From assembly GCF_003334255.1 (NCBI RefSeq), contig NZ_QOWU01000227.1: a DNA stretch of 510 nt, one strand, 5' to 3'. Source of the DNA: Escherichia coli. Its GTDB lineage: Bacteria > Pseudomonadota > Gammaproteobacteria > Enterobacterales > Enterobacteriaceae. Every line of letters starts with the position of its first letter. Positions within the stretch are counted from its first letter, which is position 1. The notes under the pieces were generated by a model, which saw nothing but the letters and a program-made list of their open reading frames with translations, searched no databases and was not told where the DNA came from. Shown here piece by piece: positions 1 through 501 of the stretch. The translations under genes and the position numbers were made by a program.

Positions 1-501
1 CTCACCAGAGGCTTTCGCATCGCTACCCAGAGAAACCTTCCCATTCTCCCCATCTTCGACGCTGAAACCTGTAATTTCTGTTTTTTCCAGGCCATACACC
101 TTGTTGTACACGCCACGAACAGCACTGTCTGTCAGCTTGTGAGGTGGAGTATTTCCATTTTGTTCATTTTTTTTACCCTCAGCAGTCCTTGCAAAATCTT
201 TCAGCGCCGGGTCATGAAGTGTATGGGTGATACCCTTACCTTTAACGGTCACATTACCTTCTGAATCAAATTTGAAAAGTGTCCTCTTGTCGTTTTTTTT
301 CTCTTTTACTTCGTATCTGAAGTTACCATTATCGACTGTCTTTACAACTTCATAGGTGCTGCCATATTTAACCGGTCCGCTCTTCTGCGAATCATCCTGC
401 AACACTGAATATGTACCATTCTGCGCACTCACTCCACCACTCATCACCAGAAGCCCGGCCAGAGAAGATGACAGGAGTGTCATTGTAAACTTTTTACTCA
501 T
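1..501 (-). CDS. Exported protein of unknown function with N-terminal Sec signal peptide; partial, 167 codons visible, 3' end beyond window
   Basis: Reverse-complement reading from ATG (plus-strand 'cat' at 499-501) is open without a stop for 167 codons to position 1. Translation: [167 protein letters not shown]. The N-terminus has a clear n-region (KK), hydrophobic core and V-S-A cleavage motif. All three plus-strand frames contain stops (frame 1 at 262-264, frame 2 at 140-142, frame 3 at about 63-65). Product family not recognised from memory; no search was possible. Confidence 0.8.
167..174 (-). repeat. A8 homopolymer in the coding strand (T8 on plus strand), encoding Lys110-Lys111 within G-K-K-N-E
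   Basis: Direct read: plus strand 'catttttttta' around 165-175; coding strand GGT AAA AAA AAT GAA. Confidence 0.9.
293..300 (-). repeat. A8 homopolymer in the coding strand (T8 on plus strand), encoding Lys68-Lys69 within E-K-K-N-D
   Basis: Direct read: plus strand 'cgtttttttt' at 291-300; coding strand GAG AAA AAA AAC GAC. Confidence 0.9.
424..501 (-). other. Predicted Sec (signal peptidase I) signal peptide, 26 aa, cleavage predicted after VSA, before QNG
   Basis: MSKK (positive n-region), [16 protein letters not shown] (hydrophobic h-region), SGGVSA (c-region with small residues at -3 and -1). No cysteine follows the cleavage site, so it is not a lipoprotein lipobox. The boundary is predicted by eye, not computed. 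Confidence 0.7.

Follow-up and report, generated by a model that had tools for sequence, protein, structure and literature searches.

Eight-adenine runs in the prophage-borne adhesin gene eibD of Escherichia coli as probable incidental slippage hotspots

Here we report an analysis of a 510-nt stretch of Escherichia coli DNA (the window) and of two homopolymeric adenine runs within its sole long open reading frame. The window is identical over 510/510 nt (100%) to the 5' end of eibD from prophage P-EibD of E. coli ECOR-9 (AF151675.1, coding sequence 975-2510), with the coding strand of eibD lying on the minus strand of the window. The ATG start codon (499..501, minus strand, read 501-499), which matches that of the AF151675.1 coding sequence, opens a frame that runs to the window edge and specifies 167 residues. 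The exact 511-residue protein is on record as EIBD_ECOLX, and the 167-residue translation of the window is also on record as a partial protein, RCQ30528.1 (P0029), from a contig of exactly 510 bp; the window is probably the whole of a short contig in a draft E. coli assembly broken within the repetitive head region. The gene encodes an immunoglobulin-binding trimeric autotransporter adhesin (type Vc secretion).

In full-length EibD (L001), Pfam places YadA_head repeats at residues 156-264 and YadA_anchor at residues 453-511 (E = 5e-16); this evidence belongs to the full gene, and the window itself holds only head residues 156-167 (1..36, minus strand), the start of the YadA-like head, a left-handed parallel beta-roll that continues past the window. 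The PDB entries 2XQH and 2XZR are both EibD, the solved structures span residues 158-442 only (158-418 in 2XQH), and nothing in Pfam or the PDB matched residues 27-155. From these boundaries, the window comprises the signal peptide, the whole structurally unsolved N-terminal domain (NTD) and the first head residues. The predicted Sec signal peptide, residues 1-26 (424..501, minus strand), has a basic n-region, a hydrophobic core and a VSA motif, with its cleavage site placed by prediction; a typical n-h-c pattern is visible, and these residues are invariant in 17/17 annotated homologues. The mature NTD, residues 27-155 (37..423, minus strand), was modelled in 2025 as a novel fold in which two helices lie on an antiparallel sheet, with an additional hairpin (PMC12511318), and our AF2 model, with six strands and two helices, agrees with that description.

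The surroundings of eib are conserved, the gene order in L002-L017 and L021-L024 being prophage tail fibre, DUF4376 protein, eib, an orf-156-like small gene and an S6-family (SPATE-like) autotransporter peptidase. Stem-loops are annotated on either side of eib in GenBank phage records, an arrangement suggesting that lambdoid prophages carry eib at their tail-fibre end as a self-contained cargo ("moron") cassette. A plasmid collection contained no match, and a scan of genome contigs with a conserved 22-mer returned 0 matches.

The preliminary description of the window pointed out two runs of eight adenines in the same gene, each encoding Lys-Lys-Asn followed by an acidic residue, and both are present exactly as described, as T8 on the plus strand and A8 on the coding strand; the gene does lie on the strand that had been taken as coding. 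An exact run scan located site 1 at 293..300 (minus strand), where AAA AAA AA(C) encodes K68 K69 N70 and the next codon, GAC, encodes D71, and site 2 at 167..174 (minus strand), where AAA AAA AA(T) encodes K110 K111 N112 and the next codon, GAA, encodes E113. The runs start 126 nt (42 codons) apart, share the same codon phase and fall within the 5' 22% of eibD; the run scan also gave an A6 run (GAA AAA ACA; 81..86, minus strand), which is outside the present finding. Outside eib, the roughly 70 kb of prophage and chromosome on its flanks contain only one further A/T run of at least 8 bases.

A change of a single nucleotide in either run truncates the protein early. The site 1 frameshift products had been derived by hand, and recomputing the A7 and A9 sequences gave the same result: a 1-nt deletion (A7) leads to a TGA at 249..251 (minus strand) and an 83-residue product, and a 1-nt insertion (A9) to a TGA at 266..268 (minus strand) and a 78-residue product. 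By recomputed translation, a 1-nt deletion at site 2 (A7) leads to a TGA at 132..134 (minus strand), which also ends a listed open reading frame at 132..194, and to a product of 122 residues, and a 1-nt insertion (A9) places a TGA (164..166, minus strand) directly after the run, yielding 112 residues that end in KKK. The expected early truncation therefore holds for a change of one nucleotide in either direction at either run, with products of 78-122 residues against 511 in the intact protein. Since the next in-frame methionine of EibD is residue 439, a restart product would lack the signal peptide.

Whether two such runs exceed chance hinges on the null model chosen: two or more A8 matches arose in 7/200 dinucleotide shuffles of the window, two or more runs of A8 or longer had P = 0.010 under codon-order shuffling of residues 27-167, two or more KKN had P = 0.009 under amino-acid shuffling, and, with the protein held fixed, the share of synonymous-codon permutations that reached at least two A8 runs was 19% for the first 501 nt and 24% for the whole gene. 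The recurrence of K-K-N is thus by itself mildly unusual, and the A8 runs follow from the peptide, because 19-24% of synonymous permutations reach two or more of them. AAA accounts for 29/43 lysine codons of eibD, and both asparagine codons that follow the lysine pairs start with AA. The preliminary caveat that A8 arises easily from AAA AAA AAY was quantitatively right. An internal duplication was considered as the origin of both K-K-N-[D/E] sites and rejected, only 4/30 residues being identical at an offset of 42 and no DNA repeat being present.

An alignment of 18 Eib NTDs is most variable, and gapped, at the columns of both sites, which lie between the conserved blocks RYEV...LFxF and DFAxxAE...H. 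The AF2 model (NTD core pLDDT 70-83) puts site 1 in the hairpin turn between strands 35-40 and 46-52 (mature numbering); site 2 falls in the loop of 17 residues that joins helices 72-81 and 99-113 (mature numbering) and is modelled with lower confidence. Both sites are thus modelled as exposed, indel-tolerant loops of the NTD. The NTDs of distant Eib paralogues have neither a KK pair nor an A8 run at either site. The NTDs are also mosaic (P0002-P0007, L002-L004, L025, L029), the segments before, between and after the two sites joining eibD-like to eibC/E-like sequence in different combinations, a pattern implying that eib alleles often recombine. One further sequence, L030 (P0011), diverges abruptly past residue 131, perhaps because it is a chimera or reflects a low-coverage error.

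Tract length was surveyed in 27 copies, of which 17 are annotated loci (phage records in GenBank, complete genomes in RefSeq) and 10 are contigs of metagenomic or viral origin. All 27 are in frame across both tracts, including 14/14 full-length copies from RefSeq complete genomes and 10/10 metagenome or viral contigs, and the length changes that persist in intact eib genes are multiples of three. At site 1, 11 copies have A8, 10 have A5 (one lysine codon fewer, or moved) and 6 have the run broken by a K to E substitution or by AAG AAC AAC; with 16/27 copies shortened to A5 or substituted, the site 1 tract is plainly dispensable. Site 2 is A8 in 23 copies, as GGT AAA AAA AAT in the eibD lineage and GAG AAA AAA AAG AAT in the eibC/E lineage, and the K-rich segment is absent from the other 4. 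Wherever that segment is present the run is A8, including the AAA AAA AAG of the eibC/E lineage, and it has been kept in two lineages that are about 79% identical and differ in the flanking codons. Selection for the run could lie behind this retention, although codon usage by itself leaves little to explain.

An interim reading, that no out-of-frame variant exists (30 assembled copies without A7 or A9, and L020 an artefact), was overturned by exact look-ups of predicted products. The initial protein search had returned mostly partial proteins from short contigs, with truncated variants concealed inside clusters. The exact truncated A7 and A9 products were predicted for five alleles and looked up by exact sequence, and protein clusters yielded more. 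As a control for miscalls, each candidate contig was compared with its nearest intact allele to see whether its other runs of at least 7 bases were unchanged. The comparison of tract length in homologous loci that the preliminary description had called for did reveal out-of-frame lengths, with A7 at both sites in sister eib alleles. The A7 calls lie in assembled contigs of GCA_017817495.1, GCA_028016595.1, GCA_948144575.1, GCA_001608315.1, ERR2044142 and SRR13993731.

Six of the variant contigs are credible. In L033, an NCBI assembly aligned over 6.9 kb, the site 2 A7 is the sole indel, and no change affects the site 1 A8, an A7 or nine 6-mers; this allele, with this change, recurs in L034, L035 and L036. 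In L037 the change is confined to a site 1 A7, with the site 2 A8 intact, and in the EibE-like L041 to a site 2 A7, with a G7 and two A7 runs intact. L033-L036 are identical over their overlaps and may be one clone that records a single event; the independent credible A8-to-A7 events therefore number at least three, and they involve both tracts. The control is weak in L038, L039, L045 and L046, which offer 6-mers but no other run of at least 7 bases.

Other contigs failed the control. L020 (protein P0013) is an artefact: with 0 substitutions relative to an otherwise identical intact allele, it shows G5 to G4, G7 to G5, A8 to A7 and G7 to G6. Three are suspect, namely L042 (A7 together with G7 to G6), L043 (the sole A9 found, together with an A6 to A7 expansion) and L044 (both A8 runs contracted). 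L040 (CP085357.1, a 46-kb record, 4644-7489) has a site 2 A6 and, unrelated to it, four further indels that include a 21-nt deletion and other small changes; either this eib copy is decaying or its assembly is poor. About 130 nt upstream of eib in L040 lies an inserted IS transposase gene (rve domains). The source name of the protein marks this record as a plasmid, so that it may represent an excised prophage or a phage-plasmid.

Intact alleles greatly outnumber A7: the five alleles occur intact in 98, 63, 157, 27 and 18 contigs, and with counts so high the out-of-frame forms make up about 2-3% of the sampled copies. For the eibD allele itself (18 contigs), 0/4 predicted variants are on record. 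Among the exact look-ups and clusters there was no credible A9, every credible change being -1, and the public assemblies examined gave no evidence of reversion. Every complete truncated open reading frame examined from the protein clusters broke at a tract, a pattern that a switch would also yield.

Inactivation away from the A runs was seen in L028, a metagenome copy of allele A, where the loss of 13 nt (GTCTCGTTGCTCT; the junction shows GTC microhomology) at about nt 1076 of the eib coding sequence leads to a premature stop at residue 397. Many eib paralogues also carry a G7 run in the YadA anchor region (CTG GGG GGG TAC, encoding L-G-G-Y; nt 1329-1335 of the coding sequence in L005, also in L010, L011 and others), which is absent from eibD and eibC. 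Two complete genomes have a short eib paralogue that lacks the head and carries a frameshift annotation, the run being G8 in L018 (locus 2891) and G6 in L019 (locus 2890), the latter with a second frameshift besides. The G7 run could be a second slippage hotspot, or these changes could be long-read homopolymer error.

The explanation that we favour, with a probability of roughly 0.65, is that slippage at the A8 runs, hotspots that arose incidentally, repeatedly inactivates a dispensable prophage adhesin in a way that could in principle be reversed. Lys-Lys-Asn in two loops modelled as exposed, spelled with the AAA codon that eibD prefers, would produce the A8 runs as by-products with no conserved signal, and the runs themselves are probably not under selection. 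As the longest homopolymers in the region they would act as replication-slippage hotspots, and slippage would account for the repeated change from A8 to A7 in natural isolates, in sister eib alleles and at both sites. Truncation at about 77-122 residues would leave no protein with both a signal peptide and a membrane anchor, so that the adhesin would be lost and the phenotype would presumably be null; reversion from A7 to A8 would be mechanistically possible. Breakage of eib at its A8 runs fits two published observations on E. coli: indel rates climb exponentially as homopolymers lengthen (PMC8510543), and its genes contain fewer AAAAAAA than expected, whichever of the three frames is considered (PMC4066793).

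A rival explanation regards the tracts as inert and every public A7, A6 or A9 variant as a homopolymer sequencing or assembly error. Four contigs (L020, L042, L043 and L044) are clearly of that kind, with several homopolymers changed, the four weakly controlled contigs offer no run of 7 or more bases against which to judge them, and the full-length copies from 14 RefSeq complete genomes, like the 10 metagenome and viral contigs, are all in frame. Applied to every variant, however, this explanation is unlikely. The other A8 is unchanged in each of the contigs L033-L037, which makes a generic homopolymer miscall unlikely in these five, L041 keeps its G7 and two A7 runs, and the same A7 allele recurs in at least four separate assemblies or runs. 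A different role for the runs, as sites of programmed recoding by -1 ribosomal frameshifting at heptamers or by RNA polymerase slippage, yielding a second short product, is improbable in the extreme. The heptamers A_AAA_AAC (site 1) and A_AAA_AAT (site 2) do stand in X_XXY_YYZ phase in the zero frame, like the A_AAA_AAG and A_AAA_AAC heptamers of dnaX and IS elements, and A_AAA_AAC is among the motifs that give more than 0.10% frameshifting without stimulators in E. coli (PMC4066793). Unlike the dnaX and IS sites, however, eibD has no stimulator, no conserved -1 open reading frame and no functional second product: the 70 nt downstream fold no better than shuffled sequences (z = -0.18 and -0.73), site 1 lacks an upstream Shine-Dalgarno-like element, the -1 frame stops within 0-11 codons, and the site 1 heptamer is unconserved. 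In the eibC/E lineage (L005-L017), site 2 is an in-phase A_AAA_AAG, which ranks among the E. coli motifs most liable to -1 shifting (PMC4066793), and the -1 frame there ends after 11 codons. As for the polymerase, slippage on eight adenines has been suggested for some IS elements of other organisms (D. radiodurans, Nostoc; PMC1088944), and the eib runs, like the 9A/9T runs that support transcriptional slippage, lie within coding sequence; however, they are of 8 bases rather than 9 or more, counter-selection against slippage is evident in many genomes at 9 nt but not at 8 (PMC1088944), and the arrangement of open reading frames in eib needs no slippage. With no stimulatory structure and no trans-frame open reading frame, both forms of recoding were rejected as largely refuted; transcriptional slippage could in principle partly rescue A7 alleles.

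A further alternative is that the A8 runs are an evolved contingency locus, at which reversible slipped-strand mispairing toggles the immunoglobulin-binding surface adhesin within a population. Such a locus could aid immune evasion or phage and prophage ecology, as simple-sequence repeats do in other mucosal bacteria. We consider it unlikely, and the stronger claim of genuine phase variation through poly(A), with A7 off, A8 on, rates sufficient within a host and the locus borne by a phage, is a shade more doubtful. The suggestion in the preliminary description that slippage might give an on/off switch holds as regards early truncation and the A7 alleles at both sites, but not as regards switching back, there being neither a credible A9 nor reversion, and only about 2-3% of copies are A7. 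In favour of such a locus, A7 forms are known for both tracts and from several allelic backgrounds, the tracts are close to the start of the gene and give very short products, the site 2 A8 persists over two diverged lineages, and A/T runs of at least 8 bases are otherwise rare in the surrounding 70 kb. Weighing against a contingency locus are the direction of every credible change, which is -1, the lack of any eibD-allele variant among 18 contigs, the dispensability of site 1 in many intact alleles, the absence of both runs from distant paralogues, and a run length that is what codon usage predicts. The tracts are neither kept beyond codon-usage expectation nor conserved in orthologues, as those of a contingency gene should be, and to our knowledge repeat-based contingency loci are uncommon in mismatch-repair-proficient E. 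coli. Levels of Eib vary markedly among strains, which would suit a switch; however, the published account of Eib regulation reports environmental factors only (static growth, growth phase, temperature and medium) and does not mention phase variation (PMC5450701). Our searches of the literature on Eib together with phase variation or frameshift found nothing, and recurrent breakage of eib at A8 tracts was likewise not found in the literature searched.

Phase-variable trimeric autotransporters include NadA and UspA1. The tracts of classical contingency loci are longer, often poly-G/C, and better conserved than codon usage would predict; they take many lengths, by gain as well as by loss, and switch at high rates. 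The simple-sequence-repeat contingency loci of Neisseria, Haemophilus, Campylobacter and Bordetella resemble eib in that homopolymer length alters expression of a surface protein and is polymorphic among isolates (PMC5084427, PMC1891110). Unlike classical contingency loci, eib has runs of 8 adenines, essentially two states (A8 common, A7 rare) and an unconserved tract. A closer parallel, and a precedent for the contingency reading, is inlA of Listeria monocytogenes, in which a poly(A) run of lysine codons lies near the 5' end of a surface adhesin/invasin gene, a -1 allele truncates the protein in natural isolates, and some lineages carry an interrupted, stabilised run (PMC2831843). The position of the eib runs matches the prediction that inactivating tracts lie near the 5' end of genes (PMC2831843). 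In inlA, however, A7 is the in-frame and A6 the out-of-frame length, the tract is at codon 8, and one lineage frequently carries the frameshift (PMC2831843), whereas eib has two tracts, at codons 68 and 110, about 2-3% A7 and no variant found for the eibD allele. The poly(A) frequencies measured for inlA, 3.9e-8 to 5.5e-7 (PMC2831843), make its tract a hotspot well below classical phase variation, and eight adenines are short on that model, with frequencies far under those of a classical switch. The data on eib fit occasional mutational inactivation of an accessory gene better than an evolved high-frequency switch.

On the incidental-hotspot reading, the A8 runs are minor mutational weak points of eib, and the stakes are modest, the gene and the phenomenon being already known. 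The case shows that homopolymer variants in public assemblies need an internal-control filter before they are believed, and that a run wholly explained by codon usage can still dominate the loss-of-function spectrum of its gene. Eib proteins, which bind the Fc of IgG and IgA, make for serum resistance, chain formation and adhesion, and strains differ strongly in how much of them they express. If slippage explains part of this variation, "eib-positive" genotype calls would over-state the number of producing strains, and A8 versus A7 at two positions would predict Eib expression.
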